A model generated the notes under the pieces. That model had not been told where the DNA came from, made no database searches, and worked only from the letters and a program-made list of their open reading frames with translations. From a virus: DNA of 64,000 bases. Where the stretch lies: positions 1 to 64,000 of IMG/VR virus record IMGVR_UViG_3300050120_000309, one strand, 5' to 3'. Both the position numbers and the translations under genes were made by a program. Within the stretch, counting starts at the first letter, position 1; each line of letters opens with the position of its first letter. Positions 4,455 through 63,364 of the stretch are shown one piece after another.

Positions 4455-4466
4455 CTAGTATAGGAA
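4455..4466 (-). promoter_or_regulatory. Putative late promoter TTCCTATACTAG (copy 1); also has an upstream CTTTGGCCG box at 4478-4486
   Basis: Exact 12-mer, intergenic, ends 6 nt before the ATG at 4448. Confidence 0.7.
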
Positions 4467-4486
4467 CGCAGTGCCACCGGCCAAAG

Positions 4487-7400
4487 CTACTTGACCGGTG
4501 AGGTGACGGGTAGGGTATTGCTCGGTGCGCCCTTGAAGAAGCGGTAGTCGTCGATAAGGGGATAGATGTTGTCTGCCTTGAACTCCTGGAACGAGTTCTG
4601 GATGTTCTGCCAGAAGTCACTGATCTGATAGCCTTCGAGTCCGCCCATCCAAGGACGTCCCCAGCGCGAGACCGGCATGATCTCCACCAGGTTGGAGGTT
4701 TGGCTCTTGTAGCCGGTGTAAATGATGCCGCCCATGATGGCCACACCAATGAGGGACTCGAGCACCCACTCCGGAGGCCCGCCGATAAGAGCAGCTCCTA
4801 CAGCAGCTGTGGTCGCCACGGCAGCTCCGCCAACCCCTGCCGCTATCTTGGTCGAGGTGTTGGAATGAACAATGGCCTGTCCCAGACCTGTCAAGTTACC
4901 GAGGCTTTTGCCCATGACCATGCAGAACATACGAGAGATGTTGGCGGTTGCCGCCTCATTCACAGTCGTAATGGCGCGGGGATAAACCGTGGTGGTACAG
5001 CCCGTCTCTTGGTTGAAGCTATGGAGAACATGATCGACTTCGACGATGCCGACAATGGCAGTCGAGGGGTCGAGCATGATGAGTGCATGACCTGGCTCGA
5101 TTTCAGGTGTCCCACGGAGGATGATCTCTCCCTCGTACATCTTGCCGAGCTCTTCCTTGAGAAAGCTTTGCTGAATCGCCTTGCACAAGTGATCGTATGG
5201 TTCGATGTTGGCTTCAGCATCGATAAGAAGATCTGTGACGTCGAGGATCCTGGTGTAGTGGGAAGGGATATTTCCATTGGCTGACGCAGTGTGCGCGCCA
5301 ACCCGGACAGCGTTGTAGATCTTGTCATTCACACGCATGCTGTTGTGAATGATCGACTGATGATCGATAAAGTGATGCATCCGCACAGGCTTCAAACGAT
5401 CGTCTGACGAAGGGTTCTGCATCTCAAGATACTTTAGCCAGAGCTGACGAACGGCGATGATCTCATTGCGAGCTGCACGCGTCCTGGAGTTCTGCGACGG
5501 ACTGTCAATATCATTGACGAATGTACCCAGCAACTGATCGGCATAGTTGAGGAAAGCCGGCGTCGACTGGAACGCCGCTAGGCCGACGAACTGTTGGACC
5601 TCTGTGTTGAGGCTGTCGAGCGCGGCGTAGAACTGTGCTGGTCCCGTAGGTACTGGCCAGCTGAGAGAAGCACCCTGATCCGTCTTGATCGCGGCAAACA
5701 TAGCAGCCCAGGCTGTAGCGCCCTGGGTATTCCACCACTGAGTGAACTGTGCATCACTGGTCAAAGAGGCATGATAGCGCTCTGCGTCCCCGATCATGGG
5801 CAGGCGGGCGAAATACCAGTCAAGTGGATGAGCTACAACCAGAGTCGCATCCGCCGAGAAAGGGAAGCCATACTGCTTCACAAGAACCTGATACTCCGGG
5901 TAGCGGCGAGAGATGTCCCTGATGATCTCCCAGATGGTCTTGGTCGAATTATCGGGGATCTTGTAGTCGAACTGGTAGTAGAGATCGGTCGTCGATTCAT
6001 CATAGAAGTCGCGCGTGAGGCGCTGCTTCGATGCGTCTCCAAGGTGGTTGATGACGTGATTGATGAGAATGTTCTCGCCGCTGCGGTCGTAGCTGGCCAC
6101 CATCGCAGCACCGATTCTGGAGACTTCATTGGTCGATGAGGAAGAGAACTCTCCGATCATCTTGCCGGCACGGTTTTCCCAGGTCAGTCCCGTAATGAGT
6201 GGATCTGACAGAGCCGCGAGCTTGAAACTCCCAAAGTGCTTGGCATTGTCCATTTTCAACATGGATTCAACAACACTGGCAACGTCAGCTGAGTCATGCC
6301 ACGGCTGCCATCCTCCCCGCTTCTTACCTGCAACCGCTTTCTGGTCTTTGGTCGGCAGCTCACACAGTTCAGCGAGGTAGCTTTCGGCCTCAATAGTCAG
6401 GATGTCATCACCTTCTACGGTTTCGACACGACCGGTGAACACTGGAGTAAGAAGATCAGGATTGTTGGAGTATCCCATCCGAATTTGGATCTTCGTGCCA
6501 GGCTGCAGGACCGCGTACTGCAGAGGTACGCGCTCTACCTTACCCGGTACGACACCGTCGCGGAGGTCGTAGCCGAGCAACTGCTGTACTTGATAAGCCT
6601 GACCACTGATGGTGCGACCTCCGACTAGGGCTGCATTGGGGTCTCCTCCTGAAACAGGGCCGGCACCAGACGCAGGTGTAGTTGAGAAGAACTCCCGCTT
6701 GTAGAGCTCCAGCTCGTACTTACCCTGGGAAGTGTTGTCGAAGAGTTTGTGCTGGAGGATGTTGGCGACGTTTGTGATTGTTATGCGCGCCAGATCCGGT
6801 TTGTCCTTGTACTTCATGACTTCAATGTCAAGCACCGAAGCATAAGAGTAGAAGTTGTCGAAGCCTTGGATCCAGCCCGGGGAGGCGTCCTCAAGCAGGA
6901 AGAGTTTGTAGGTCGGAAAGGCCTCAGCCATGCTGTAGCCTGGGATATTCGTCATCCGAACGAGACTGTTCGTGTCGGCATTCTGCCCAACGTACTCGCT
7001 CTCGGTGATGGCAATGTCGTACGAGTCTGGACGCACTGGGGTATTGACTGCAGCGGCGGTCTGAGTTGCAGCAGTGACCACCTGATCGAGACTCGAACGT
7101 ACATGAGCCATGTACTCATCGTTGTGATTGACGAAGTAGTAGCCAGGATTGAAGTCCGCTCCATTGACGGTCAGAGTATCCAGGCCCATGTCTTTATAAG
7201 CGCCATGTCCGGCATTGACGGAATCTAGCCCTGGCCCTTGTGGAGAGACAGCAGTCGTAAACTGAGCAGAGAACCTTGGGCTGTTCGCCAGGGTGTTGAT
7301 ATCCGTGGCGAAGTTGGCGTCATAGGAAGACAGCAGGGGAAAGATTGCGTCATAGACAGACTGAATGACCGCCTTTCGGGAGGGCACGTTGGTCAGACCT

Positions 7401-9697
7401 TGCGCTGTGTTGTCAGCAGCTGTCAGCCCGAAATCCAATCCCCAGTTTGAATTCGTCTCCACCAGGGCCTGGAGTAGAAACGCATCTCCATAGGTGAAGG
7501 TTCCGCTCTTGAGCATCGGCTGGAGGCGCTTGAGCATCGAGGGGTAACCGGCGGCTACTCCATTGGTGGCAAAGGGTGTCAGCATCGTCGTAACCTGCGC
7601 CGGCTTAGCGTCACAGGAACCTGTAGCTGAGAGGCCAGTGAAATCAACGGCCGTCACCTTCCCAAGCTTCTGAAGGAAACCGGCGAGAACAGGATAGCTG
7701 TAGGCAGCTCGACCTGCGGAGAACGACGACAACTCCGTGATGGTATTGGCTTCATCAGGAGTAAGGCTGGAGAGAGCTCCCGAACTGACAAGGGCGGCCG
7801 CCTGGATCACCGAAGCTGAATCCAGGGATCGGATCTTGAATGGAGACGAGACCTCAAAGATGTTCTCGTACTGAGAACCAGTAACTTCGCACATCACGGT
7901 GTCGGATGTGTTCCCAAGAGTCTGAGCACTGATGCGGTCGATCATCACACCACGAAGGCCCAGCATATTGAAGACCTTGTTCTCGAGGTAGAACGCCTGC
8001 ATCCTGTGAATGCTCGATACCGCGCGCCAGGTGTTTCTGAACTTCAGGTATTGTGCTTCGAGATACTCTGAGGCACCAGAGATTGCCCGAATTCCAGGGT
8101 GGCTCGGTTCAATATCTTCGGAAGCCCGCTCACCCTTCGACAGGAATCCAAGGGAGAACTTCGCGCTCGTACTTCCAATGTGCTGATAGGTCGGGTACTG
8201 GTATCCGGCGAGAGGGATCTGGGCCAGGTTATTGGTGAACAGGATCGAGAACGTCGTCGGGACCATGTCATAGTTGTGCTCGAGATCACCATGATTGGTG
8301 TCTGAGAAGGTCAGTTCCTGCTCTTGATAGAAGAAGGCAACGTCATTGACTGCATGGTCATAAGACCAGCCCTCCTCGATGAGCTTGAGAACGTGCGCAC
8401 TCTGTTCGGCGGTGAGGCTATCGCCCGGAGCCGAACCTGTTGTGTCAGCAATGGGAGTAAGAGCGGCAGGTTTAGCAGCAGTTGGTGGAGACGCTACGAG
8501 GACTGCAGGAATCTTGGACTTCTTGCCACCAGCCGCAGGATTCGAATACTGAGGGGCATACAGAGCAATGCCCTTTGCGTAGTCCGGTTCAGGACCCTCG
8601 TAGTAGCCCTTGCTCTTGAGCGCAGCTGCCAGGCCGGCAGCGGTCTTCGGGGTTGCAGCAATGACGGTGCCGTAGCGCTTTCCGGTCATAAGGCTGCCGT
8701 AATAGACACCAAAGTCTGCGATGGTGGCGAACGGCCGGTAGATCTTTGTCCCGGGCCAGCGTACTCCTCCCAGGTTGTTGAGGGTGCGGGCTCCGCGGTT
8801 GGTGAAACCCTGAGTCTCAAATGCCCATTGGCCAAAGATCAATTCAGCAGGGAGGCCTGTCTTCTGGGAAGCAGTCGCTGCCGCGGCGCGCGCGGCGGCC
8901 GCAATCGAAGATGAGTTAGCATTCGCTGCAATTTGTGGGACAACAGTGTTTTGAACAGCACTGGCGACAGCTGCCGTGGCAGCAGCGGAGACACCTGTTG
9001 CCACCATCGTACCGATCTTCTGGGTCTGGTACTGACGGTAGCGTAGCTTCACTGTGCCGTCGATCTGGTCACGCCAGTTGAGGAGTGGAGATCCGTCGTA
9101 TGACGACTCCGGCCCGCCATCCAGATTCTTCTGCTGCCATGAAGCGATGTATTGCTGGAAGGGAGCGCACAGATAGGCGTCTGTCGACTGTCCCTTGTCC
9201 CCGATGTAACCAAAGTCCGAGGAGTAGGGGAAGTAGTTGAACAGCGTCATCGTCAGATCGACATCGAGGACATCAATCAGGTCTGAATTGGTCTTGACAG
9301 ATAGCTGCCGCAGGCCGAATCCCATGCGGGAATTAGTCATGGACGAATCCTGCTCCGCAAGAGCCTGGCGGATGAATCCGTTCTCTACCTCAACGAAGGG
9401 CGCTGCGTGAAACATGGCCAGGATGGCACGGAGATCCTCCCACTGTTTGTAGCGTCCATCCTCAGTTGAAGCAGTGTCATCGATCATGACCTTGAAGGCC
9501 ACACTGACATCCCATCGAGACTGACCAGTCTTCTTGATCATGTCGTTGCGGCCACGTAGGGTCGTCAAACGGTCGTTGTTGACCAGCTTGTCGGACTTGA
9601 TGTCGGTCGGTGGAACGGACAGGACGATGTGTCCAATCCGGAAGTAGCCGGCCTGAGTGGGGTTGTTCTTCTCGTACTCGCTGAATGTGATCGACAC
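4487..9697 (-). CDS. Large baseplate hub protein with GH73/FlgJ-type peptidoglycan hydrolase domain
   Basis: GLPAELIFGQWAFETQGF...NNLGGV...YRPFATIAD...GYYEGPEPDY (approx. 8530-8900) is a glucosaminidase signature; LQPGTKIQIRMGYSNNPDLLTPVFTGRVETVEGDDILTIEAESY resembles gp27/gpD-like hub domains. Confidence 0.75.
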   Translation of the reverse strand: MSITFSEYEKNNPTQAGYFRIGHIVLSVPPTDIKSDKLVNNDRLTTLRGRNDMIKKTGQSRWDVSVAFKVMIDDTASTEDGRYKQWEDLRAILAMFHAAPFVEVENGFIRQALAEQDSSMTNSRMGFGLRQLSVKTNSDLIDVLDVDLTMTLFNYFPYSSDFGYIGDKGQSTDAYLCAPFQQYIASWQQKNLDGGPESSYDGSPLLNWRDQIDGTVKLRYRQYQTQKIGTMVATGVSAAATAAVASAVQNTVVPQIAANANSSSIAAAARAAAATASQKTGLPAELIFGQWAFETQGFTNRGARTLNNLGGVRWPGTKIYRPFATIADFGVYYGSLMTGKRYGTVIAATPKTAAGLAAALKSKGYYEGPEPDYAKGIALYAPQYSNPAAGGKKSKIPAVLVASPPTAAKPAALTPIADTTGSAPGDSLTAEQSAHVLKLIEEGWSYDHAVNDVAFFYQEQELTFSDTNHGDLEHNYDMVPTTFSILFTNNLAQIPLAGYQYPTYQHIGSTSAKFSLGFLSKGERASEDIEPSHPGIRAISGASEYLEAQYLKFRNTWRAVSSIHRMQAFYLENKVFNMLGLRGVMIDRISAQTLGNTSDTVMCEVTGSQYENIFEVSSPFKIRSLDSASVIQAAALVSSGALSSLTPDEANTITELSSFSAGRAAYSYPVLAGFLQKLGKVTAVDFTGLSATGSCDAKPAQVTTMLTPFATNGVAAGYPSMLKRLQPMLKSGTFTYGDAFLLQALVETNSNWGLDFGLTAADNTAQGLTNVPSRKAVIQSVYDAIFPLLSSYDANFATDINTLANSPRFSAQFTTAVSPQGPGLDSVNAGHGAYKDMGLDTLTVNGADFNPGYYFVNHNDEYMAHVRSSLDQVVTAATQTAAAVNTPVRPDSYDIAITESEYVGQNADTNSLVRMTNIPGYSMAEAFPTYKLFLLEDASPGWIQGFDNFYSYASVLDIEVMKYKDKPDLARITITNVANILQHKLFDNTSQGKYELELYKREFFSTTPASGAGPVSGGDPNAALVGGRTISGQAYQVQQLLGYDLRDGVVPGKVERVPLQYAVLQPGTKIQIRMGYSNNPDLLTPVFTGRVETVEGDDILTIEAESYLAELCELPTKDQKAVAGKKRGGWQPWHDSADVASVVESMLKMDNAKHFGSFKLAALSDPLITGLTWENRAGKMIGEFSSSSTNEVSRIGAAMVASYDRSGENILINHVINHLGDASKQRLTRDFYDESTTDLYYQFDYKIPDNSTKTIWEIIRDISRRYPEYQVLVKQYGFPFSADATLVVAHPLDWYFARLPMIGDAERYHASLTSDAQFTQWWNTQGATAWAAMFAAIKTDQGASLSWPVPTGPAQFYAALDSLNTEVQQFVGLAAFQSTPAFLNYADQLLGTFVNDIDSPSQNSRTRAARNEIIAVRQLWLKYLEMQNPSSDDRLKPVRMHHFIDHQSIIHNSMRVNDKIYNAVRVGAHTASANGNIPSHYTRILDVTDLLIDAEANIEPYDHLCKAIQQSFLKEELGKMYEGEIILRGTPEIEPGHALIMLDPSTAIVGIVEVDHVLHSFNQETGCTTTVYPRAITTVNEAATANISRMFCMVMGKSLGNLTGLGQAIVHSNTSTKIAAGVGGAAVATTAAVGAALIGGPPEWVLESLIGVAIMGGIIYTGYKSQTSNLVEIMPVSRWGRPWMGGLEGYQISDFWQNIQNSFQEFKADNIYPLIDDYRFFKGAPSNTLPVTSPVK

Positions 9698-9699: not shown

Positions 9700-12600
9700 T
9701 TACCCTTCCAGGGCTTGCTGCATCTTCTCGCGGGTGCGGAGAGAGCCGGGCTTCATTTGATCGCGGTAGTTGATCGTGACGGTTGAGCTGCCATCAGTTG
9801 CCATGCGGGCCATCATCTTGGCGGTATGGTGCGCGCGCTGCTGATCGGAAGAACGGAGACGGACATCGAGGTCTCGTGTCTCGCCAAGGGGCGCAACGGT
9901 TGTGGTGCGGGTTTGTGCTGGGGCGGAATTGACGTTCCGTGGTGGGCGGGAAGGTGCTCGGGATCCGGCGGGACCATCTCCTGGAACCATGTCGGGACCA
10001 GGGTGAGTCTCTTCCGGACGATACTTGCTCGTGGAGTCCCGGCCAAAGGCTGCAAATGGTTTGCTGAGGCGGGTTGTTGCAATGCCTGCGATGACGGCGG
10101 CCGCGGCGCCTATGCCGAGAACCATACCAATCTTGCTTCCACGAGCCTCACGGGCAACGCTTTCAGCTGTCCGAGTCACCTCATTGAGAGTTCCCAGAGC
10201 TTCTGCCGACCAGGTGCTGGCGGCGCCGGCGGCAGTCCGCGCTTCTTCAGCTGTCGTACTGGCGGCTTGAGAGTAACTGAACATCTCCGAACCCATACCC
10301 AGAGTCTTGGCACTCGCTGCGTTCTCTGCCGGCGTCGTCATGGCCTGGACTGCCTGATCGACTGCTTCACGATCGAATCCACTGTGAAATTGTTCGAGGA
10401 TCTCGCGGTTCTCAGCAAGATAGTCACGGAATGAGGTACGGTCGTTGCCATCGGCAGCGTCCGCCAGCTGGCCCAATGAACCGTAGAAGTGATCGAAGGT
10501 GCCACCCTTACGCATGGAGTTACGCAAGCTGCTGTCGATCTCCAGCGCCTTAGCCAGATCGAGATCGTTCTGATTCTTGAGCTTCATGCCCGAGATCGGA
10601 CCCTGTTTCACAGCCTGCATGAAGAAGGTTGACAGGCTGCTCTTGACTTGAGAATTGGTGATGTTCCGATTCTCTTCGAGTGCCGCCATCATCATGGAGT
10701 AGGTATTCGAACCTGAACCGACAGCTCCGCCGACGGAACGACGACGAAGCGCTTCGTTCCGGGTGTAGAACTTCTGATCCTTGAGACGGCCGAGGAAGGA
10801 CTTGTAAGCACCTTCCTTCGTCCCAACTGTCTGACGAGTCTCGTCACCAACGCCAACAAGGTTCTGCAGATCAGGGACATCCAAGTTCTGAGAGGACTTG
10901 GGGTTCATGACTGCTTCGCGTGCTTCGGCTATCGCATCTTCAGAGTCGAGATAGGAAATGTTCGGACGGTCACCGTCCATATCGAGCATCATTAGCGCAC
11001 GGATCCGCTCATCGATGCCAATACCGGTTGCCTTGTTGAGGTGAGGATCGAGAACGACTCGAACTAGTGGAACGTGCCCTACGGGCTCGCGACTCAGCAT
11101 CGCAAAGACGTCCTCTCCATTGAGGAGGGCGTCACGAACCTTCTTGCTCCGAATCTTCCTGGCCTGGGCCTTACCGATGGCAACTTCCCATGGGTTGATA
11201 GCGCCATCTGCATAGCGCATGCTTGAGGGGCGTGTGTGGGAGGCGAGGGTCTGGGAGAGAGGATCAACTGGGCCGCTACGATAGAAGCTGTCCTTGCCAT
11301 GGACGAACTTCTTCAGCGTGTCCTTATAGGCTTCAGTCTGTCTGGCGATCGTTCCTTCATCAGCGCCCTCCTCATGCATCTTCATGAGCTGGAAAAGAGC
11401 GCTTTCGTGCTCATTTGTTGAGAATTGACCGGCGCCGTAGCGGTTGACCTTGCCACCATAGGCACTATGGCCGAGTACGGGCACAGCGCTGCCGTCGGGC
11501 ATCTTCAACATGAAGTTGTTCTCAGCAGCGACATTGCCTGGATCAAAGATGGAACCAGCACGATTGGAGGCAGTCGTAATGCTACGAGTGCCCGGTGCAA
11601 TGGCATCGCCGAGACTGATCGTGTTTGAGATCGCAGTCTCATCACCCTGGAAGTGCTTGAGCAGATCACGAGTCTGGGTTAGATCGCCGTCATACTTGAG
11701 GCGGCCGGTGATGTTGCCCGCTACGCCATGGTGGCCGCGGATTACCAGCTGCTGCTGGGTGTAGTAGGCGAACTTGGTCTGCTTCGGGACGTTGTAGGCC
11801 ATGTCGTCGGTGATGCGCAGCTCTGAAGGCATGGCATAACGATTGACATAGTCGGCCCAGGGAGTCTTTCCGCCCTTCTCAACATGGGCAGCATAGCTCT
11901 GCATGAACTCATCGCCACGGACTGCATGCGAGGTGATGCGGTCGGAGACATCCTGGAGCATGTTCTTCAGAACAGTGTCTTCTTGCTGAATACGCTCGGG
12001 TGTACGGATGCCCTGCTTGGTGAGGTCCTGATTGAGAGTGCCGTTGTTGTACGCGAAACCAGCCTCAGCCAGGGGATCCCGCCACTTCGACATCACGGGC
12101 TCAAGCTCACCATGCTCCTCCAGACGGCGGAGGGAGTCAGAAGAGATACGAGATAGTGCATCCTGCAGCTCCGAGTCCTTGTTGGTGAACGAACCCTGCG
12201 AAGCGTACACATCAACCTCACGCGGGATGAAGCCGCCGGCTCCGGTGGCGTCGCGGTAGTTGTTCAGACCAGTGCGGAGGCGCTCACTGTCTCCAGTACG
12301 ATCGAAGCTCTGAAGAATGCCTTTCTGGGAGCCGACATTGAACTTGGTGCCTGTCTCGATGTCCTTGACTTCACGCACGACAAAGCGAGTCGTTCCGTCA
12401 CCCATGTTGTGAGTGTTCTCAATGAAGTTCTCTGCTCCCTGTGCGGTGACAGGATTGCCGTTGCGTCGGCCGAGAAGGATCTTGCTTGGGCCATAGACCT
12501 TCTTACCTTCGGCGCTGAGGGTGAAGGTGCGCTTCCCGTCCTCATCGAGAAGGCCGTAGTGCTTCTCCATGGATTGCCCCATGAAATTCTCCCAGCCGGA

Positions 12601-52780: not shown

Positions 52781-52783
52781 GTG

Positions 52784-52948: not shown

Positions 52949-52956
52949 GGGGCTCC

Positions 52957-53670: not shown

Positions 53671-54072
53671 TTACTGAACTACCTCGCCTGTTTTGAGATT
53701 CGTCGTTCCTTCGATAAAGGGCCAGTCCTCGAACTTCTCCAGAAGTGCCCAGGAGATCTCAGAGATTGCTACCCACCAAGGCGCCTGTGGGGCCGAGAAG
53801 TCACAGATGATGCCATGCTCGTCGGTATAGGATCCGCCAGCAAAGGTCTGACGGGTCTTTTCATGGACAGCTTTGATTGCTCCCTGCATCTCGAAGAGCT
53901 CGCCGTTACGGACCAGAACGCTATCAGAGGTGACGAGCCTGAAGGTGGCAAGATCCTTCACTTCGCCGGGGATGAAGTTGCTAACGACACGAGGGGCAGA
54001 CTTCACTTTGCCCTGGACGACGAAGCGGGCCATGAAATAGCCCGAGGTTTCGAGATTGATGAGTTCTGACAT
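53671..54072 (-). CDS. Hypothetical protein (probably leaderless)
   Basis: Start MSELINLE supported by CTTTGGCTC box at 54101-54109. Confidence 0.65.
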   Translation of the reverse strand: MSELINLETSGYFMARFVVQGKVKSAPRVVSNFIPGEVKDLATFRLVTSDSVLVRNGELFEMQGAIKAVHEKTRQTFAGGSYTDEHGIICDFSAPQAPWWVAISEISWALLEKFEDWPFIEGTTNLKTGEVVQ

Positions 54073-54160
54073 GAGTTGAATATGAACTGCATGTCCGTAG
54101 GAGCCAAAGACAACGCCCACCTTTATCAGATGGGCGTTGTCAGAGACTACTGATGGTTCG

Positions 54161-54889: not shown

Positions 54890-55083
54890 AGGTGTTGCCT
54901 CCGACTACGAGATTGCCGTTTGGTGGGGTTCGAGCCAAAGCTAAGAGCCAAGACCCTTCAGGAACTGGCCCGGTGTGCGCGGCGAACCTCTATGAATCAA
55001 CTTACGGATCGTTCGTATGCGAAGCCATCCGGTGATCCCCTGACGTGTGCATAGGGAAAGCAGCCAGAGACGGAACCGGATCG

Positions 55084-55704
55084 TCACAGCCGTTCCTGGA
55101 AAGTGACCTGCTGCTCCAGCATGCCGAGGGCGGTATGAGTGGCACGAGAAAGGACATTGCTCCCTGTAACCCCACAGGCGATATATTTGAGTCCCTTGTT
55201 ACGGGCCTCCGTCTTGGCTTGGGTGTACATCTGCCGGTAGAGGCCTCGGCGCCGATGATCTGGATGAGTCCAGACGGTGCCGATCCACGCAGCGTTACCT
55301 TCGACCCACTGAAACCAGACCAGGATCGCTACGGTGACTCCCAGGTGTTGGATGTAGACAACGTGATCCCAAGAACGCGCAAAGAAGGTCTCACCAGTTC
55401 CTTCGCTGACATGCTCGGCCCCAATCTCGCGGGAGGCGGCATGTGCGATGGCCATCAATTCGCCATCGCCTATTTCATCGAGGCTTAGGGCGCCACTGTA
55501 GTCACTGGGGATCTCTTGAGGGAGGAACATGGCAGATAGGTTCTCGAGGAGGTTCTCATCGTCCAAGGTAATGAACGACGTGGTGCTGAAACGCAGGTTG
55601 AGGACACCAGACTCTTCACCTCGGTTCACACCGATCTGAAGTTCAGTCATTGGTCCAAAAGGGGAGGGAACAGGAAGCTTTGCGTCCAGAAGCGTGAAGA
55701 GCAA
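55084..55704 (-). CDS. GNAT-family acetyltransferase
   Basis: WIGTVWTHPDHRRRGLYRQM (acetyl-CoA motif A) and VTGSNVLSRATHTALG. Confidence 0.75.
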   Translation of the reverse strand: MLFTLLDAKLPVPSPFGPMTELQIGVNRGEESGVLNLRFSTTSFITLDDENLLENLSAMFLPQEIPSDYSGALSLDEIGDGELMAIAHAASREIGAEHVSEGTGETFFARSWDHVVYIQHLGVTVAILVWFQWVEGNAAWIGTVWTHPDHRRRGLYRQMYTQAKTEARNKGLKYIACGVTGSNVLSRATHTALGMLEQQVTFQERL

Positions 55705-55707
55705 TAG

Positions 55708-56088
55708 CTACTCCAGGGAGGGGATGATTTCGAGGTAGGAAGCGAGACGTCCGCCGCCGCACATGAGTCCGGGTGTTTCGACTTCAGGGTCGTGGATGAT
55801 TCCAGCCCAGTTCAATGCCCAGTGGCCGGCAAACGGCTGGCCCTTGGTGTGGAACAGGATGTGCAGCAAAGCGTAGTCAGGTGGTTTGCCCACACCGCGC
55901 CAGCGCTGCAATCCTTTGCCTTTGACCTCAATGTTCAGAGAATCAAGTGCAGAAACGAGCTCCCAGGTCTTGGTGCCATGGTTGTGTCCGAACAGTTCGA
56001 TCGACTCCTCGACGGAGATGCCGGCTGCCATTGCAACAACGGTCTGACCACAGACCCGGGAGTTCTTTGGTTGTACGAGATGAATCAT
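55708..56088 (-). CDS. Papain-like (C39-like) cysteine peptidase
   Basis: Q...CGQTVVAM...GHW...IHDP catalytic pattern. Confidence 0.7.
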   Translation of the reverse strand: MIHLVQPKNSRVCGQTVVAMAAGISVEESIELFGHNHGTKTWELVSALDSLNIEVKGKGLQRWRGVGKPPDYALLHILFHTKGQPFAGHWALNWAGIIHDPEVETPGLMCGGGRLASYLEIIPSLE

Positions 56089-56318
56089 TAGGCGAGGTTG
56101 AACGTGATCGTGTCGCCCTTTTTCATCTGGAACATGGGGACAGAGTCGGGAGGAAGATCGAACCAGATAGCGGCGAGGCCGCGCTGGCCGGTGCTTGAGA
56201 CGTAGGGTACGGAGAGCTTGGAGTAGGTGGCGGTCTTCGGTGGGTTGGAGAAAGGCTGATCACGACGTTCGATTTCGGCGGTCGGGGTGTCGGTGGCTGT
56301 GAAAGTGACGGACTTCAT
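56088..56318 (-). CDS. Hypothetical protein (probably leaderless)
   Basis: 76 aa; box at 56347-56355. Confidence 0.6.
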   Translation of the reverse strand: MKSVTFTATDTPTAEIERRDQPFSNPPKTATYSKLSVPYVSSTGQRGLAAIWFDLPPDSVPMFQMKKGDTITFNLA

Positions 56319-56321
56319 GAA

Positions 56322-56573
56322 CTAGAGTCTGCCCGGCCTGGGACCCGAGCCAAAGTGATAGTCCAACGAAGTCTCGCCTTCCGGATCAACGATCTGTTCG
56401 ATCTTGAAATAGAGCTGAATGACAACCATCCAAACGTGCCGGTACGCACGCCACAGACGAGGCCACCAGTGCGTCGGAAGCTCCCCGGCACGCAGCTCAG
56501 CTACATTCCTTTCGTACGGATAGGCAACGCCCAAATCGGAGATGTACTGGAGGTGTTCGCTACGGTCTGACAT
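56322..56573 (-). CDS. Hypothetical protein, paralog of 56560-56781
   Basis: GELPTHWWPRLW; GAGGAGG SD. Confidence 0.6.
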   Translation of the reverse strand: MSDRSEHLQYISDLGVAYPYERNVAELRAGELPTHWWPRLWRAYRHVWMVVIQLYFKIEQIVDPEGETSLDYHFGSGPRPGRL

Positions 56574-56781
56574 GGCTACCCTCCTCGGCGCCAAGCTCCA
56601 TGATCTGGGCCATCTTCAGCCAGAAGCGATACCAGAGATGAGTCGGCAGCTTACCTTCCGCCAAGACCCTCCGGTTGTCCTTGAAGCGATAGGAGAGACC
56701 GATCCGGAGCATCCGGTCGGTGTGCATCTCGAGCTGCTCTTCTGGGGTCAATGCTGGTGCGAAGTGAAATGGGAAGGTCAT
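56560..56781 (-). CDS. Hypothetical protein, paralog of 56322-56573
   Basis: GKLPTHLWYRFW; ATGA coupling. Confidence 0.6.
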   Translation of the reverse strand: MTFPFHFAPALTPEEQLEMHTDRMLRIGLSYRFKDNRRVLAEGKLPTHLWYRFWLKMAQIMELGAEEGSHVRP

Positions 56782-56987
56782 GAGATCTCGAAGATGATAC
56801 GATCGCCGGCTTTGAGACCGAGAGGTGTGAGGAAGATGCCAGGTGTAGCGAACTTCATGTGGACGGTGCCTGAGATCCGAGAGTCTTCCTGAGTGAAAGC
56901 AACCTGCATCTCAGGGAACTCGCCATTCTCGTTGATAGTGACATCGAGGGAGGGATCAGCAAGGACCTGCAGAACGAGACGCTTCAT
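56778..56987 (-). CDS. Hypothetical protein
   Basis: 69 aa, coupled on both sides. Confidence 0.55.
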   Translation of the reverse strand: MKRLVLQVLADPSLDVTINENGEFPEMQVAFTQEDSRISGTVHMKFATPGIFLTPLGLKAGDRIIFEIS

Positions 56988-57208
56988 TAGCCCCAGCTGT
57001 GTTCAGAGATGGTGTATTGAGACTCTCGAAAAAGGACGAAGGCCAGATTTGCGGCATCTATCCGTCGAGCAAAGCGCAGTGGTTTGTTCGGATCCGTTGT
57101 CCACTCGTAGATGGTGTGGAGGTCGTTGTATGGTGCGATACCTAGCCACTCAGGCATTGGTCCTGTCGGCGCCTTCTCAATGAGCCAACCTGTTTCTATG
57201 GGTTCCAT
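56987..57208 (-). CDS. Hypothetical protein (probably leaderless)
   Basis: 73 aa; box at 57237-57245. Confidence 0.65.
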   Translation of the reverse strand: MEPIETGWLIEKAPTGPMPEWLGIAPYNDLHTIYEWTTDPNKPLRFARRIDAANLAFVLFRESQYTISEHSWG

Positions 57209-57397
57209 GCCCTCGACCCTATAGGGCCAGACGGGGGAGCCAAAGGTTACCGAGCAGGATCATCCTGGTGTAACTGAGCACTCTCTTTGCCGAATGCCCC
57301 GTACGGGAACATGTACAGGTTTGGTCAGATAATCGACACATTTATCTGACATGTTGAAGAAACATACATGTCGGAAGAACCGGCAACATCTTGCCTC

Positions 57398-57592
57398 TTA
57401 TCCCGTAGAAGCCCGTTTATCGGCAACATTGTGCCTGATAAAGCCAAGTCCCACCATCATGTCGTACTGCCTCTGAGAGACGACGATCGCCGGCGGCTCA
57501 TGGGAGTAGGGAACAGGAAGAAGCAGCTCTCTGAGGTCATTGAGCTGGAGAGCCCCGGTGTTCTTGGTGTACTCAGGATCTGACGATTTCAT
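57398..57592 (-). CDS. Hypothetical protein
   Basis: 64 aa, TAATG coupling. Confidence 0.5.
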   Translation of the reverse strand: MKSSDPEYTKNTGALQLNDLRELLLPVPYSHEPPAIVVSQRQYDMMVGLGFIRHNVADKRASTG

Positions 57593-57894
57593 TACCGACT
57601 CACCTGATCTACAGGCGGCCCAATGTTCTCTATATAAGAGCAGAACCCGTCACCCATTACCAGGGCTGCGTCTTTCGGAATAGAACCAGAGACATCTATG
57701 GATATGGAGAAGGGGAATGCCTTGACGGGTAGTTTCTTACTCTGTTTCCGAGATGCAAATTCCAACCAGTCCACAAAGGATTGGTTCGCTCCATCATTGA
57801 GGATCTCAGTCCCCAGATCGAAATCTCTCAGATCGATCGGCCGGTCAATCTCTGTGCTGTAGATCGTCCAACTAGCTTTCTTGGCAGCTGCCAT
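57592..57894 (-). CDS. Hypothetical protein (start uncertain)
   Basis: C-terminal part of the 173-aa track ORF; upstream part overlaps another gene. Confidence 0.45.
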   Translation of the reverse strand: MAAAKKASWTIYSTEIDRPIDLRDFDLGTEILNDGANQSFVDWLEFASRKQSKKLPVKAFPFSISIDVSGSIPKDAALVMGDGFCSYIENIGPPVDQVSR

Positions 57895-57935
57895 GGATGT
57901 TCCTATCTGTATGGGGAGTTTGAGCGGTCGGCCTA

Positions 57936-58145
57936 TTACTTGATGACCCCATTCATCTTGAGTACAGCCTGGAGGTTCTCTATACCAACGGCGACCCGGA
58001 AGATCGCAGGGGTGAGTGCTTCGATTGCCAGCATGATCAGAACCAGGCAGGTCGTTACCGACCAGTGCGCGTGAAGAGCCACCTGGAAGAGCAGAGCTCC
58101 TGTGATAATCCACCGAATACCACGGATGAGGTGTGCCTTCGTCAT
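57936..58145 (-). CDS. Small membrane protein (probably leaderless)
   Basis: MTKAHLIRGIRWIITGALLF...; box at 58174-58182. Confidence 0.6.
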   Translation of the reverse strand: MTKAHLIRGIRWIITGALLFQVALHAHWSVTTCLVLIMLAIEALTPAIFRVAVGIENLQAVLKMNGVIK

Positions 58146-58210
58146 TCCTGCAGCGTAGTGGCTCAGAAGGGCTGAGCCAAAGGCGCCGTCACGCGAACCG
58201 GAAATCACTT

Positions 58211-58543
58211 TTATATATGCAGGGGCGGAGTAAGTGTCTTGATTCTCAGGTTCTTGGCAATGACAGCATGCTCAGGTTCATTGGGATCAAAGACAAGGAC
58301 ATGTACCGCCTGCTCTCCAGCAACCCATCCCAGATTCTTCATCATATGGAGCAAGTCTATGACATCGTCAGAAGATAGGGACCAGTCGAGCTGGCCCTGA
58401 TCGTCCGTGCCTGTGGTGATCCCGAAGACCGGTAGAGCTGGGGGGTGTTGTGAGGTGCGGTGCCCTGGATCCGTGTTGGCTCTCGGGTCGTTGTCAAAGA
58501 TGACTGTGGCGTTGTCGATGGCTTCGTTGAATGACATACTCAT
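58211..58543 (-). CDS. Hypothetical protein (probably leaderless)
   Basis: GTTTGGCTG (58573-58581)-N16-TACTAT-N7-ATG 58543. Confidence 0.6.
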   Translation of the reverse strand: MSMSFNEAIDNATVIFDNDPRANTDPGHRTSQHPPALPVFGITTGTDDQGQLDWSLSSDDVIDLLHMMKNLGWVAGEQAVHVLVFDPNEPEHAVIAKNLRIKTLTPPLHI

Positions 58544-58775
58544 GGCGCCCATAGTAAGCGGCGCACTACTGCCAGCCAAACTCACTTTTATATATGTGGA
58601 GAATGCTCCGCACTGATCGCAGATTGGTGCTCGGAAAACGCTTTGCCAATGGGGATACCAGGGTAATAAGGGTTACCCGATATGGACACTAATCGTTTCG
58701 AGCCCACCCCGGGTGAACCAGGGGTACTGATGTCCACACATCAGCATAACCGTAACACTTACAAGGAGATACACA

Positions 58776-59339
58776 ATGGATACTCATAAGTTCGCAGACG
58801 TCGTCGCATCAGAACTCGGTCTACCCAAATACAAGGTAGTCGTTCAACGTGAGCTCGAGGGAATCAACGCAATGGTTGTTCCTGTAGTCAACGAGATCTG
58901 GCTCAGCCAGCAGATGGTTGAGGAACTCACCAACGAAGAGATCTGTGCAGTCATCACGCATGAGCTTGCTCATCCCTATCACTCGCATCTAGCTAAGCGC
59001 AACGCAGTGTCAGCAGGTCAGTTCATCCTGTCAGGCATCAATCTGTTCCTGCCATTGCCTATCTGGAAGAAAGTAGTCATCGAGCTCGGCATGTCGACGG
59101 TCGCTGCGATCGCCAAGCACAAGATGTTCTGTGCTCAAGAGTATGAAGCAGACGAAATGTCCTTCCGCTATCACCTGCAGGGATCACTGGTCTCTGCATT
59201 GAACAAGATCGAAGCATCAGCACAAGAGCTTCAGAAGAAGTCGGGTCAACCACAGTGGATGCTGGCATTGGGTAGCTTGACTCACCCCAAGACAGCCGAT
59301 CGTATCGCTCGTCTCAGTGTGCCCGTGATCAATCGCTAA
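58776..59339 (+). CDS. M48/HtpX-like zinc metallopeptidase
   Basis: INAM, EEICAVITHELAH, QEYEADE, LVSALNKI, LTHPKTADRIARL; AAGGAG SD. Confidence 0.85.
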   Translation: MDTHKFADVVASELGLPKYKVVVQRELEGINAMVVPVVNEIWLSQQMVEELTNEEICAVITHELAHPYHSHLAKRNAVSAGQFILSGINLFLPLPIWKKVVIELGMSTVAAIAKHKMFCAQEYEADEMSFRYHLQGSLVSALNKIEASAQELQKKSGQPQWMLALGSLTHPKTADRIARLSVPVINR

Positions 59340-59373
59340 TAGCCCTATACCTCAGATTCACAAGGAGAATCAC

Positions 59374-59586
59374 ATGGAATTCATCAAGAAGTACACGTCG
59401 TATCTCCCGGATATGCCCTCAACCTCTGAGGTCATCAAGCACATGGATAGCTACCTGCTCGATAAGAGCAAGGCGGTTACCGAGTTTCTCGATGAACACC
59501 CTGGTATCGCTATCCTGCTCAGCCCTACAAGTATCACGCGTCGCGCAGCACAGAAGCATGTCGACAACATGCTGCACCAGAAGTAG
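59374..59586 (+). CDS. Hypothetical protein
   Basis: 70 aa, AAGGAG SD. Confidence 0.7.
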   Translation: MEFIKKYTSYLPDMPSTSEVIKHMDSYLLDKSKAVTEFLDEHPGIAILLSPTSITRRAAQKHVDNMLHQK

Positions 59587-59674
59587 CAATGTTCCACGTG
59601 GAACTCACTGGTCACCCAATTGGGTGGCCTTCGCTGTTTATGGACACATAACCCATGCAATAGGAGAAATCACA

Positions 59675-59788
59675 ATGTTCAGCTACGAAGTAAAAGGCAT
59701 GTCCCCTCAGGTATTCGTCTCCCTCATCCTCACCGGTATGTTCATCGCCACGATCGCTATTGGTCTTGGTTTCCGCTACGCAGCGTAG
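59675..59788 (+). CDS. Small single-TM protein (37 aa)
   Basis: MFSYEVKGMSPQVFVSLILTGMFIATIAIGLGFRYAA; AGGAG SD. Confidence 0.65.
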   Translation: MFSYEVKGMSPQVFVSLILTGMFIATIAIGLGFRYAA

Positions 59789-59829
59789 TCGTAGTTTCAC
59801 GGACCATAACCCAGATCAAGGAGATCATC

Positions 59830-59958
59830 ATGCACGTATTACTCGCCAAAGTAATCGCTACTGTCCTCGTATCTATCGCAACACTCACTTACATAGCGTA
59901 CGTGTCTTACAGGCCAAAGAATGCAGGTCCTGTAACTGATTACAAGCACTGGCTTTAG
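59830..59958 (+). CDS. Small single-TM protein (42 aa)
   Basis: MHVLLAKVIATVLVSIATLTYIAYVSYRPK...; AAGGAG SD. Confidence 0.65.
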   Translation: MHVLLAKVIATVLVSIATLTYIAYVSYRPKNAGPVTDYKHWL

Positions 59959-60028
59959 TGGTCGGACATTAGCCCTCAGAGATGAGGGCCTTTGTCTGCC
60001 CATTGGGGTAGAGACAGAAAGGAGAAGT

Positions 60029-60475
60029 ATGAAATCTGTCGAGGAACGATTCTGGTCCAAAGTCATCAAGCAGCCTAACGGGTGCTGGATATGGACTGGA
60101 GGAGTAAACGCAATCCATGGCTATGGCAGGTTCTGTCATAGCTCAACTGAAGAGAAGGCACATCGATATAGCTATCGCTTGGCTAAAGGAGAGATACCGG
60201 AAGGTCTCAATCTCCTGCATTCCTGCGATGTCAGAAGATGTGTAAACCCTGACCATTTGAAACCTGGTTCACAGTTGGAAAACGTCCAGGACTGTGAGTC
60301 CAAAGATCGATTCAATCACCCACAAGGTGAGAGTCATGGCAGCGCAAAGCTGACTGCAGCTCAAGTTGAAGAGATTAGAGGTCTTGCAGGCAAAATGCCC
60401 CACTCAGCAATAGCGGCAAAGTTCGGTATGAGTAGATCTCATGTCGGCAATATCTGTCGTGGCGCCAAGTGGTAG
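60029..60475 (+). CDS. HNH homing endonuclease with C-terminal HTH
   Basis: RFWSKV...CWIWTG...YGRF...AHR...LHSCDVRRCVNPDHL...EN; AKLTAAQVEEIR...IAAKFGMS. Confidence 0.9.
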   Translation: MKSVEERFWSKVIKQPNGCWIWTGGVNAIHGYGRFCHSSTEEKAHRYSYRLAKGEIPEGLNLLHSCDVRRCVNPDHLKPGSQLENVQDCESKDRFNHPQGESHGSAKLTAAQVEEIRGLAGKMPHSAIAAKFGMSRSHVGNICRGAKW

Positions 60476-60574
60476 ATGTACCTGCGGTGCAAGCCCATAA
60501 GCACCGTATGTGCCAGAGACGTGGTCCAAACACGTCTCTGGCTTACTTCAACTACCAGATCAAGGAGAATGATC

Positions 60575-63364
60575 ATGTCCAACAATACCAAGAAGACCCT
60601 CGCCCTCGTCAAGGAAATGGAACTGAAGCCCCGCGTTCGTGTCCCCTACGTCGCAGGTGTTCACAGCCACTTCCACGCCCCAACCATGTTCCACAGCACC
60701 TGGGAAACGTCGAACTTCTTCGACATGTTCCTCCCAGAGGGTGTGAACTATGTTGAGGTGTCTGTACTCGGCCGTACTGAGGATGAACTGGATGCCAACA
60801 CATCCTGGTTCGACCACATCGGACGGGAAGGTCTCAAGATCCAAGGTGTTACGCACCGTGTGATCTTCGGTGACTGGGATGACGACGGAGTTGCCATCAT
60901 GGTGCCGGCGGACGCAGTGAAGGGACTTCAAGACCTCGGTCTATCCCTCCAAATCAATGGACCCGCAGATAAGGCTAAGGTACGCAAGTACTTCCGTCGT
61001 ATCCGCGCGCACCACGAATGGGCCATCTCGGGCGCAATCGTTGCCACCAAACAGGTGGAGAATGGTGAGGTACTGACCGTTGCTCCGGATAGCCAGTCGG
61101 ACATCCGGTTCGATATGCTCCATGTCGACCTCAAGGGCATGGACCCAATCAACGTAGCACTCGCTGATGGTGTACACCTCATCGATGTCAACCTGTGCCA
61201 TACCATTGGCCTGGCCTACGGCATCGATAAGCTCACCAACGTCAAAGTGGGTGATGCGTTCAAGGGAACAGCACTCTCAGGTCTCGGCCTGGGTAAGGGC
61301 TTCTTCCATGTCGTTGAGAACGCAACCTATGGAATCGTCCTGTATGGAGCGAAGAAGCAAGTCACGTTCAGTGAGTTCTTCCTCGGCTCACTCGGAGATG
61401 TCAAGGGTGCTGATGTGGCCTATTCGGACCTTCAGTCAACCATCAACTTCGACTATCACCAGGGCGAAATGCTCTATAACCAGTCCGTCCTGTTCATGCA
61501 GGAAGTCATGGAGGCAATCCACAACGAAGACAAGATGCGCCACGTGTTCCTGACACACATGGCTCCGATCTCCGAGATCCTCAGCAATGAGGAAGATGGC
61601 GGTCGTGAGTCCTGGGTACTGCTCGAAGCACTCCGCAAGGGTGTTCCGGTCAGCGCGCAGGGACCAATGAATCCCGGCCTGTTCCGCAGGGTGGTGCGTC
61701 ATCTGTTCACACACGTGCTCGATGCAACCAAGGGACGTGTTCCCTTGACTGGTATCGTGGGACGTTTCAACCTCATGCCTGACCTCAACTGCTTTCTCGA
61801 AGATGGATCTGTGGACTATCGTCTCAGCTCTATCCCAGCAGAAGCTGTGGTCTGCATGGATCTCGATCAGGGCCCATTGGCCATGTATCGTCAGCCCTCG
61901 GGACACAAGAAGGAGCTGGTCAGCACGAACAATGTGCATGACCGTCGCTTCAAGAAGTTCCGTGGTCAGAACCGTATCATCCTCGGTGCAGATGCACTAG
62001 AGTATCTCGCCATCATGGGTGGTGGAGATATGGACGATGCGGTCAATGCAACCGTCAACCTGTCCTGGGTGGAGACAATGGCAACTGGGTCATACCCGTT
62101 GACTGCACTCCCCGCGGCACAGAGCACCAAGGCACTCGACGCAGACAACAAGTATCGTCGTGGTCCTGCCTATCCCCGTCAATGGTCGATGATCGACTTC
62201 TTCGAAGCAGTTGCTGCTTCCAAGGAGAAGGCATCCATGTCCATTGGTGTCGTCGTCAACGCAATCATGCTGGATGAACTCCTGTCCGGCGTGCATAAGG
62301 AGAACATGCTTACCGATATCGCCGATCGCATCGTTGATGCCAAGGATGAGTCGGAGAAGCATGACCTCCGTGTCGCCTATGACTGGCTCCGCAACCGTGA
62401 GGATCGTATCCTCCGTGTCGTGGCTTCCAATCTGGAGGCATTCATCGATCAGAGCAAGACTGGTGCAGGTGATGCTGCTGTATTGGCATCATTCACCGCT
62501 CTCATCAACGAGGTCCGTAACAACAGCATGGTGATCCCCTCGTCGTTCATGATCAAGAACAACAAGGGCCGTGAGCGTGTGCCAGCTAAGCGTCTCATGG
62601 ATATGGACTTCATCACAGCGCCCTCGCTCGTCTGCGAGACGCTCAACCGTATCAAGTTCGAAGCCGATCAGATGCAGGAGGCTCTGGTCGAGGAGCAGTG
62701 GCTCAACGTGGACAGCATTCCTGACTCGTTGGACGCAGCATTCCCACGCAGCAAAGCACACCGTGAGGAGGCATTCGAGCTCCGTATGGCATGGGGTGAG
62801 GCATTTCAATCCCAGCCCAATGCAGACCTGGCGATTCGCTATAAGAACGCCATAGATAACGTGGTCAAACCAGCCTTCTTGAACAAGGAATTGTTCGAAG
62901 AGGACAAGGTTCAGATCGCAGTGGAGCATGCTCGTCTCACCTACCGTGGTCGCAAGACTCAGGCAGAGCGTGGCGAGAATGGTCGGTTCCGGAACTACCC
63001 TGATGGGCTGCTCTGGACCAACACCATCGGTCTGTACTACATCAAGGCGCTCGAAGAGGCTGGACTTACCGGTCTGTATGTACCGGTTCAGTTCGATCGC
63101 TGGAGCCGCAACCTCAGCCGTGGTGCATTTGATGTCCGGGTCGTAGCCGGCATCGTTCTGCGCGCGGAAGATGACATGATGCTCGGAACCACGTTCAATG
63201 TCCTCGATGAAGTAGAGGATGGTATCTATCCCATGATCGATGGCATGATCACCGTCCAGGCACCTGCAGCTGAACTGCGGGCGCCTCGCAACATCGTCAA
63301 TGAGTCGTTCGACAACCCCATGGAGCTGGACTTCGATCTTGATGAAGTCTTTGCCCGTGGCTAG
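60575..63364 (+). CDS. Single-subunit two-barrel RNA polymerase of the cellular RdRP/YonO-like type (variant DxDD catalytic loop)
   Basis: Ordered motifs LADGVHLI, AFKG...GKGFF, MYRQP, MGGGDMDD (62027-62038); R to first D spacing 46 aa; start moved to ATG 60575 behind AAGGAG. Confidence 0.75.
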   Translation: MSNNTKKTLALVKEMELKPRVRVPYVAGVHSHFHAPTMFHSTWETSNFFDMFLPEGVNYVEVSVLGRTEDELDANTSWFDHIGREGLKIQGVTHRVIFGDWDDDGVAIMVPADAVKGLQDLGLSLQINGPADKAKVRKYFRRIRAHHEWAISGAIVATKQVENGEVLTVAPDSQSDIRFDMLHVDLKGMDPINVALADGVHLIDVNLCHTIGLAYGIDKLTNVKVGDAFKGTALSGLGLGKGFFHVVENATYGIVLYGAKKQVTFSEFFLGSLGDVKGADVAYSDLQSTINFDYHQGEMLYNQSVLFMQEVMEAIHNEDKMRHVFLTHMAPISEILSNEEDGGRESWVLLEALRKGVPVSAQGPMNPGLFRRVVRHLFTHVLDATKGRVPLTGIVGRFNLMPDLNCFLEDGSVDYRLSSIPAEAVVCMDLDQGPLAMYRQPSGHKKELVSTNNVHDRRFKKFRGQNRIILGADALEYLAIMGGGDMDDAVNATVNLSWVETMATGSYPLTALPAAQSTKALDADNKYRRGPAYPRQWSMIDFFEAVAASKEKASMSIGVVVNAIMLDELLSGVHKENMLTDIADRIVDAKDESEKHDLRVAYDWLRNREDRILRVVASNLEAFIDQSKTGAGDAAVLASFTALINEVRNNSMVIPSSFMIKNNKGRERVPAKRLMDMDFITAPSLVCETLNRIKFEADQMQEALVEEQWLNVDSIPDSLDAAFPRSKAHREEAFELRMAWGEAFQSQPNADLAIRYKNAIDNVVKPAFLNKELFEEDKVQIAVEHARLTYRGRKTQAERGENGRFRNYPDGLLWTNTIGLYYIKALEEAGLTGLYVPVQFDRWSRNLSRGAFDVRVVAGIVLRAEDDMMLGTTFNVLDEVEDGIYPMIDGMITVQAPAAELRAPRNIVNESFDNPMELDFDLDEVFARG

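Follow-up and report, generated by a model that had tools for sequence, protein, structure and literature searches.

An uncultured contractile-tailed phage, represented by a 95,911-bp virus contig (~96 kb; IMG/VR record IMGVR_UViG_3300050120_000309), encodes two predicted single-chain two-barrel RNA polymerases (RNAPs) from families with no detectable sequence relationship. The 64-kb stretch analyzed here, called the window below, is the first part of this contig; minus-strand genes occupy ~58.7 kb down to position 1, and plus-strand genes extend from 58.8 kb as far as the contig end. One polymerase, protein B, is encoded in the tail module of the minus arm and is the candidate virion enzyme, and the other, protein D, is encoded in the early operon of the plus arm and is the candidate non-virion enzyme. 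Combined with the promoter-like signals described below, the pair suggests a staged transcription program of the type known from Thermus phage P23-45, built in this case on two unrelated enzymes, a reading that in our judgment has about an even chance of being right.

Two unrelated polymerase families

The two enzymes and the giant proteins encoded beside B are as follows.

9700-14697, minus strand: protein B, 1665 aa, predicted single-chain two-barrel RNAP (fold and invariant residues), candidate virion enzyme
60569-63364, plus strand: protein D, ~930 aa, predicted QDE-1/YonO-like single-chain two-barrel RNAP (fold and invariant residues), candidate non-virion enzyme
4487-9697, minus strand: protein A, 1736 aa, giant tail/ejection protein with a glucosaminidase (peptidoglycan hydrolase) domain (PF01832, phrog_20474)
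14700-18710, minus strand: protein C, 1336 aa, in the tape-measure slot according to the open reading frame (ORF) map and synteny with sheath, tube, and baseplate genes

Protein B comprises a conserved 560-aa N-terminal part, a polymerase core (~aa 740-1420 of 1665), and a C-terminal region with a tail and one transmembrane-like segment (aa 1521-1539). Sequence searches of Pfam, PHROGs, PDB, and INPHARED phages returned nothing useful, and scans of IMG/VR with the single protein and with a five-sequence alignment retrieved no relatives. An exhaustive HMMER search gathered homologues in 88 representative clusters at 50% identity, mostly 1500-1700 aa long, and the core common to these clusters corresponds to aa ~740-1420 of B. 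Alignment of 49 homologues, down to 19% identity, left nine invariant columns, including D1239, D1241, D1243, and P1205, with R1203, K785, and K792 conserved in at least 90%. The aspartates belong to a DxDGD loop (D1239-M-D-G-D1243) in a β′-like double-psi β-barrel (DPBB-A), and K785/K792 form the lysine pair of a β-like barrel (DPBB-B) that is N-terminal to DPBB-A in the same chain. R1203-E-P1205 constitutes an [RK]xP motif 36 residues before D1239, within the range of the survey filter applied in the P23-45 study, which selects [RK]xP 20-100 residues before DxDxD (PMC10770324).

The AlphaFold2 model of B (aa 560-1520; predicted local distance difference test (pLDDT) 89.2, predicted template modeling score (pTM) 0.88) was compared with PDB structures using Foldseek, and among the matches listed, all at E ≤ 0.001 are RNAP largest subunits (β′ chains) or QDE-1. 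VIA-align, which is independent of Foldseek, recovered QDE-1 (Z 11.8), human Pol I A190 (Z 11.7), Mycobacterium tuberculosis β′ (Z 10.2), P74-26 gp62 (8f5m, Z 10.1), and P23-45 gp96 (8h2m, Z 8.0). Residues 588-715 of the model match isolated DPBB domains (Z 8-10) and β′ subunits (Z 10-11.7), and residues 1-410 match β subunits at modest Z (6j9e_C, 6.5; 4c2m_B, 6.0). On these fold matches and the conserved barrel residues, B is, by its model, a fused β-β′-like single-chain two-barrel RNAP for which template-dependent synthesis is predicted. Similar folds in BFVD occur among uncharacterized myovirus proteins of Acinetobacter phage vB_AbaM_ME3 and Microcystis phage MaMV-DC and in one protein annotated as a minor tail protein. 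The same list holds weak matches to proteins of crAss-like phages (the "cr" series) labeled DNA helicase, which we provisionally take to be crAss virion-polymerase polyproteins. In a metagenome-assembled genome (MAG) of Terracidiphilus, the B homologue (C636:29985-34713) is split into two overlapping frames meeting at 31987-31991, reflecting either a frameshift or an assembly error.

Genes C, B, and A follow one another with consecutive stops and starts 2 nt apart, A being directly downstream of B, and the trio sits between the tube/chaperone genes and the baseplate, the usual slot of the tape measure protein (TMP). A copy of the late-promoter-like box TTCCTATACTAG (see below) at 25723 heads the sheath-tube-C-B-A operon, which includes B. 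Protein C has no Pfam or PHROG match. Protein A matches PF01832 (E 7.5e-8; glucosaminidase domain at aa 272-380) and phrog_20474 (E 4.5e-35), also contains a C-terminal hydrophobic segment, and may be the cell-wall-piercing component of an ejection complex.

Protein D starts at 60569 (931 aa) or 60575, within a longest ORF that opens at 60476 (962 aa), and has at least 50 homologues. A Pfam scan gave no hit at E ≤ 0.1, so D has no sequence-level membership in PF05183 (RdRP), and sequence searches against INPHARED phages, PHROGs, and PDB sequences yielded nothing useful. Its AlphaFold2 model, built from 34 homologues (pLDDT 84.4, pTM 0.79), matches QDE-1 over the whole chain in Foldseek (5fsw_A, E 5.7e-16; TM 0.44-0.49 across QDE-1 chains, with 0.49 over ~950 alignment columns for 2j7n). 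Plant RDR2 comes next, then the P23-45-type non-virion RNAP 8f72 (E 2e-5) and gp96; the match to phi14:2 gp66 (6vr4) is weak (E 0.016). Structure neighbors in the ESM Atlas are RDR clusters (TM 0.61-0.64), of whose members 32-39% carry PF05183. Across the 34 homologues, down to 26% identity, D487, D489, D490, R390, P392, and K243 are invariant. The catalytic loop (residues 484-490) reads GGGD[MF]DD family-wide, a DxDD pattern that retains three acidic residues at altered spacing and departs from the canonical DxDxD (DxDGD); D is consequently missed by the [RK]xP...DxDxD survey filter. According to the model, D has a two-barrel fold with conserved catalytic residues.

Aligning the profiles of the two families with hhalign detected no relationship (probability 0.1, E 0.58), and by this test B and D are unrelated in sequence and are not paralogues. 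The claim of a first-pass annotation of the window that it encodes two distinct two-barrel RNAP candidates is thus borne out by the predicted folds, the invariant catalytic residues, and the profile comparison.

Several observations concern the surroundings of D. An HNH endonuclease gene (60029-60475) lies directly upstream, and an M48-type metallopeptidase gene (58776-59339) opens the early operon. The relatives L025, L027, and L064 have no ORF comparable in size to either gene upstream of D, and L001 has no HNH equivalent; both genes accordingly look like insertions. Immediately 3′ of D is a 396-nt non-coding stretch (63365-63760) of high predicted stability (ΔG -145.5 kcal/mol, z ~ -4.9) without an Rfam match, and L001 has a spacer of like length and stability after its D homologue.

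Promoter-like signals

Three features stand at the divergence of the two arms.

58582-58595, plus strand: AT-rich box TCACTTTTATATAT, conserved in relatives, candidate earliest promoter at the head of the plus-strand early operon
58205-58218: second copy of TCACTTTTATATAT
58654-58719, plus strand: 66-nt non-coding block with a conserved hairpin (~85-90% DNA conservation by eye)

The box and leader (58582-58719) were missed in the first reading and were revealed by aligning the divergent region with relatives. Only two copies of TCACTTTTATATAT occur in the genome, at 58205 and 58582, and they flank a ~370-bp segment that is missing from L027. L025, L026, L027, and L064 each have one copy, with its orientation kept, at 600-990 nt before the D gene. 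The 66-nt block, located between the 58582 copy and the first early gene, also follows the single copy in L025, L027, and L064 and is better conserved than the neighboring genes; an Rfam search of 58-64 kb, which includes the block, gave no match. The Terracidiphilus MAG has a copy of TCACTTTTATATAT with one mismatch, on a contig that bears no relation to the phage. Neither of the two repeated motifs described next is present in the D-containing operon, and TCACTTTTATATAT with its leader block is the best candidate for the signal launching it, judging from position and conservation.

The first repeated motif, CTTTGGCTC, has 10 exact copies in the 95.9-kb genome, against a chance expectation of ~0.7 on both strands. 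Seven are on the minus strand of the minus arm, all within the window, and three are on the plus strand of the plus arm; all 10 fall in spacers, co-oriented with the local genes and upstream of a start codon.

58573-58581, minus strand: variant box GTTTGGCTG, separated by 16 nt from TACTAT, which is 7 nt before the ATG of the gene that begins at 58543
58174-58182, minus strand: CTTTGGCTC, ATG 28 nt downstream, leaderless
57237-57245, minus strand: CTTTGGCTC, ATG 28 nt downstream, leaderless
56347-56355, minus strand: CTTTGGCTC, ATG 28 nt downstream, leaderless
54932-54940, minus strand: CTTTGGCTC, 42-nt leader with a GGAGG site
54101-54109, minus strand: CTTTGGCTC, ATG 28 nt downstream, leaderless
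53324-53332, minus strand: CTTTGGCTC, ATG 28 nt downstream, leaderless
31966-31974, minus strand: CTTTGGCTC within the structural arm, 45-nt leader

At half of the 10 sites, the ATG of a 69-133-codon ORF occurs exactly 28 nt after the box and lacks a Shine-Dalgarno site; the others have leaders of 42-76 nt, three of them with a Shine-Dalgarno-like site. If transcription is assumed to start at the A of the ATG, CTTTGGCTC spans -37 to -29, with TTGGCT at -35 to -30, followed by a 17-nt spacer and nAnnnT at about -12 to -7, an arrangement that fits all five leaderless sites. The comparison was made with the general sigma-70 layout, which may not be the consensus of the host, and uses assumed start positions. 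Relative to sigma-70 promoters and to T4 middle promoters (MotA box plus -10), the likeness is in this spacing and in a start ~7 nt downstream of the -10; the differences are that the upstream element is an invariant 9-mer with the core TTGGCT instead of TTGACA, and that the -10 is weak. By its sequence, the motif resembles a factor-dependent class more closely than a bulk host promoter. In the host-like MAG, the exact 9-mer shows no genome-wide enrichment, and convincing sites are confined to phages whose D homologue is at least 60% identical.

The second repeated motif, TTCCTATACTAG, occurs exactly six times, each time on the minus strand and ahead of a structural operon or gene.

50959-50970, minus strand: 10 nt before an ATG
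46832-46843, minus strand: upstream of the 46.8-kb operon
38285-38296, minus strand: in the 3′ end of the portal ORF, with a syntenic copy in a related phage (C636:1554)
28350-28361, minus strand: tail and neck region
25723-25734, minus strand: heads the sheath-tube-C-B-A operon, with a syntenic copy in the same related phage (C636:17072)
4455-4466, minus strand: 21 nt past the protein A stop, with the next ATG (baseplate genes) 6 nt further on

Allowing up to two mismatches gives seven matches including the six exact ones, a number reached in none of 100 shuffles. A shorter copy, CCTATACTAG, is found at 70470 (minus) upstream of the sole minus-strand gene in the plus arm. The 12-mer is followed by nCAGG at five sites and by CCAGT at the sixth. 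Its core, CTATACTAG, has 12 copies in 304 kb around 40 metagenomic D homologues (~2.3 expected), always antisense to D, and reaches phages whose D homologue is merely ~39-47% identical; the 9-mer plus downstream nCAG is invariant over ~19 sites in several phages.

Both motifs recur at syntenic sites in a phage found in the Terracidiphilus MAG (~47-57% identity in aligned translated DNA), and this MAG also carries homologues of both polymerases. By these sequence comparisons, CTTTGGCTC and TTCCTATACTAG are promoter-like, co-oriented with genes, and kept in relatives. This upholds two of the three signal classes in the first-pass annotation, and the segregation it described is largely real, the departures being the CTTTGGCTC box at 31966 in the structural arm and three more in the plus arm.

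The third proposed class, hairpin-rich spacers with strong Shine-Dalgarno sites in the early region, does not stand as a distinct signal. Early plus-strand genes do have strong AAGGAG sites, and AAGGAG is all that the spacers share: a de novo motif search of 18 early spacers yielded no motif exceeding shuffled controls. At 59.9-68 kb, ~6 of 11 spacers are strongly structured (z < -3), compared with ~9 of 40 elsewhere, which is enrichment and not segregation. One hairpin is retained in a relative with a different loop. An N4-like hairpin promoter class was rejected, given stems and loops without common sequence and similar structured spacers elsewhere; such hairpins may be terminators or stabilizers.

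A proposed staged transcription program and its alternatives

From the two enzymes and these signals, we infer the following order of events and pairing of enzymes with promoters. Protein B would be made late, packaged, and ejected with the DNA, and would initiate at the AT-rich box TCACTTTTATATAT, leading to production of D. The CTTTGGCTC-N17-nAnnnT sites would be read by the host holoenzyme as sigma-70-type promoters, giving mostly leaderless mRNAs for small takeover and DNA-metabolism genes in both arms. The contiguous CTATACTAG-nCAG box would serve as the late promoter of the structural operons, including that of B itself, and would be read either by D, in the way YonO acts on late genes of SPbeta, or by host RNAP assisted by an unrecognized phage factor. 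The multipolymerase temporal program of the first-pass annotation is therefore reasonable, as both polymerases and two of its signals are real; its hairpin class, its novelty, and its assignment of CTTTGGCTC are not retained.

A precedent exists in Thermus phage P23-45, whose TMP-fused virion two-barrel RNAP (gp96) transcribes pre-early genes from AT-rich promoters; these genes include a second, non-virion single-chain two-barrel RNAP (gp64) that uses GC-rich promoters, and late genes are made by host RNAP (Chaban et al. 2024, PMC10770324). Supplementary Data 4 of the same study lists many two-RNAP viruses, including non-jumbo phages with two different single-subunit families. The earlier statement that no described phage has such a combination thus does not survive this precedent, with its distinct promoter motifs, and these other viruses. 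As in P23-45, one two-barrel RNAP gene here is in the tail module and the other in an early operon, B sits where the tape measure would be and is linked to a membrane segment, promoter motifs are separate, the earliest operon having an AT-rich one, participation of host RNAP is probable, and P23-45-type structures are among the fold matches of both B and D. The systems differ in that gp96 and gp64 cluster as ancient paralogues (PMC10770324), whereas B and D lack profile-profile similarity; in that D belongs to the QDE-1/RDR type and its loop is DxDD; and in that B is a separate 1665-aa protein between two giants, whereas gp96 is the N-terminus of a 5002-aa TMP. The tail here is contractile and that of P23-45 siphovirus-type, one or two AT-rich boxes compare with 14 in P23-45, and the putative host is a mesophilic soil acidobacterium.

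Other giant-protein polymerases offer partial parallels. Crass-like phi14:2 gp66 and N4 gp50 are likewise giant proteins with an embedded RNAP domain, are encoded among structural genes, and are presumed to be injected for early transcription. Similar to B, gp66 is a single-chain two-barrel enzyme, whereas N4 gp50 is a T7-like single-subunit RNAP; gp66 is absent from every match list for B and, as noted, resembles the D model weakly. Crass-like phages and N4 are podoviruses, and we know of no second two-barrel RNAP for later genes in crAss-like phages. With YonO of the Bacillus prophage SPbeta and the QDE-1/RDR proteins (PF05183), D shares its whole-chain fold, differing in the absence of a sequence-level Pfam match and in DxDD rather than DxDGD. 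A single-chain enzyme that needs no sigma factor, YonO transcribes late genes of its phage, the role proposed for D.

The first-pass annotation had given the CTTTGGCTC class to the second phage RNAP, alone or with host RNAP. Because -35/-10 geometry with leaderless starts points to a host-type holoenzyme, the class is probably a sigma-70-type promoter producing leaderless mRNAs and used by host polymerase, not by D. We regard as improbable the stronger version of the earlier assignment, in which D alone, once made by injected B, would transcribe both the CTTTGGCTC and CTATACTAG classes and leave the phage largely independent of host RNAP, as phiKZ is. It gains from the Pfam scans, which recognized no sigma factor, known RNAP-modifying domain, or transcription factor among the phage proteins (including the 74 remaining small and medium ones), from canonical TTGACA-N17-TATAAT sites that are depleted if anything at 44001-64000 (3 against 9.7 ± 3.5 in shuffled sequence), and from an exact CTTTGGCTC 9-mer far better conserved than a usual -35 element. 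However, a sigma-70-family signature is seen in the bipartite -35/-10 layout, with its 17-nt spacer, its A-11/T-7, and a start 7 nt downstream; to our knowledge, no sigma-less single-chain two-barrel RNAP has been described with such a layout; a single enzyme would have to recognize two dissimilar architectures; and CTTTGGCTC is not convincing in more distant D-bearing phages, whereas CTATACTAG is present there.

The converse, that host RNAP reads both motifs, CTTTGGCTC as a full -35/-10 promoter and CTATACTAG as a -10-only late promoter enabled by a phage factor, seems to us rather doubtful. Such factors are exemplified by P23-45 gp39/gp76 and T4 gp55. D would then transcribe only part of the early/middle plus arm or have another role such as priming. 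TATACT agrees with TATAAT at five of six positions, including A-11 and T-7, and neither motif occurs at 64-71.8 kb of the plus arm, so that some other signal must act there. P23-45 itself uses its non-virion RNAP for early/middle genes and host RNAP for late ones (PMC10770324). Weighed against this are the invariance of the CTATACTAG 9-mer plus nCAG across its sites, unlike degenerate host -10 elements, the failure of Pfam scans of phage proteins to recognize a late sigma-like factor, and the lack of enrichment of the 12-mer at up to one mismatch in the host-like MAG outside phage contigs (10 matches against 9 for the control). It is very improbable, finally, that B is a tail/ejection structural protein with an RNAP-derived domain in another role, leaving host RNAP to start early transcription. 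Its place in the tape-measure slot and a membrane segment like those of ejection proteins would suit such a function, and a dedicated enzyme may seem excessive for one or two AT-rich boxes; however, the invariance of the catalytic DxDxD and P1205 and the ≥90% conservation of R1203 and the lysine pair across the 49 B homologues indicate selection for catalysis, and N4 gp50, crAss gp66, and P23-45 gp96 are active enzymes in giant virion proteins.

Returning to the staged, two-polymerase program, several points count against it. Packaging of B, the candidate injected enzyme, is suggested by gene position alone. The loop of D is DxDD instead of the canonical DxDxD metal-binding loop, and its activity is a prediction from the model. 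The AT-rich box might have a different function, as an origin, packaging site, or regulator site. TATACT, contained in the late box, is compatible with a sigma-70 -10 as well, having A at position 2 and T at position 6, which would allow recognition by host RNAP. Only two genomes, this one and the Terracidiphilus MAG, are documented to have both B and D, with a probable third in which a single-member B cluster and a single-member D cluster fall on one 141,917-bp Logan contig. Contig C18, from an Acidobacteriota MAG, has a D homologue (44-47% identity) with no B relative and neither motif; yet it resembles the phage only around D and was treated as uninformative. Weak collinear tblastx matches of C18 were disregarded as a spurious product of sum-statistics. 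The IMG/VR scan for D returned one 46-kb fragment without the tail arm, which is likewise uninformative on co-occurrence. A check of related genomes, proposed at the outset, thus finds both genes and both motifs together in the Terracidiphilus-MAG relative and probably both genes in a third case.

Genome context and implications

PHROG matches identify the phage as contractile-tailed and place its structural genes in the minus arm.

42344-44533: large terminase
38080-40308: portal
32473-33804: major capsid protein
23126-25000: tail sheath
1687-2889: baseplate wedge

The plus arm contains a ligase, thymidylate synthase, and NAD-salvage genes, the last as a pair at genome positions 90003-92565 encoding a ribose-phosphate pyrophosphokinase-like protein and a nicotinamide phosphoribosyltransferase. 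An ORF cut by the left end would terminate 41 codons inside the right end, and the record is therefore probably a circular assembly. Two very stable hairpin spacers adjoin abundant structural genes, one just 3′ of the major capsid gene (32413-32472, z -8.6) and the other between two tube-like genes (22217-22332, z -4.7), and could be terminators or attenuators. An INPHARED search found no related phage; the nearest relatives are metagenomic (bog, peat), with some contigs binned in the Terracidiphilus MAG and others in another Acidobacteriota MAG. Together with a GC content of 57%, these binned relatives indicate that the host is probably a soil acidobacterium.

The two-RNAP concept is already known from P23-45; this phage differs in its unrelated enzymes, the DxDD loop, the contractile tail, the unannotated B family (~88 clusters at 50% identity without a Pfam or PHROG model), and a new promoter set. 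We put forward only tentatively, as possible but not probable, the fuller interpretation that B represents an undescribed family of tail-borne, membrane-anchored single-chain RNAPs of contractile-tailed phages, that D represents a QDE-1-like lineage with a functional DxDD active site, and that with three dedicated promoter types they amount to two polymerases of independent origin acting alongside the host enzyme in a mid-sized soil phage. If the staged model holds, the two-polymerase strategy of P23-45 would have arisen independently from unrelated two-barrel lineages in a contractile-tailed phage, which would suggest that cell-type polymerases are injected by more tailed phages than present annotation reveals. 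With its DxDD loop, the D family would broaden the catalytic signature accepted for two-barrel polymerases, and phages with D-like enzymes would have gone uncounted in motif-based surveys requiring DxDxD. The short promoters, one a 9-mer -35 box giving leaderless starts and the other a contiguous late box of 9-13 nt, could together with the enzymes supply orthogonal transcription parts, and the system could offer an initial look at how phages of Acidobacteriota, a soil phylum that is dominant yet poorly studied, express their genes.

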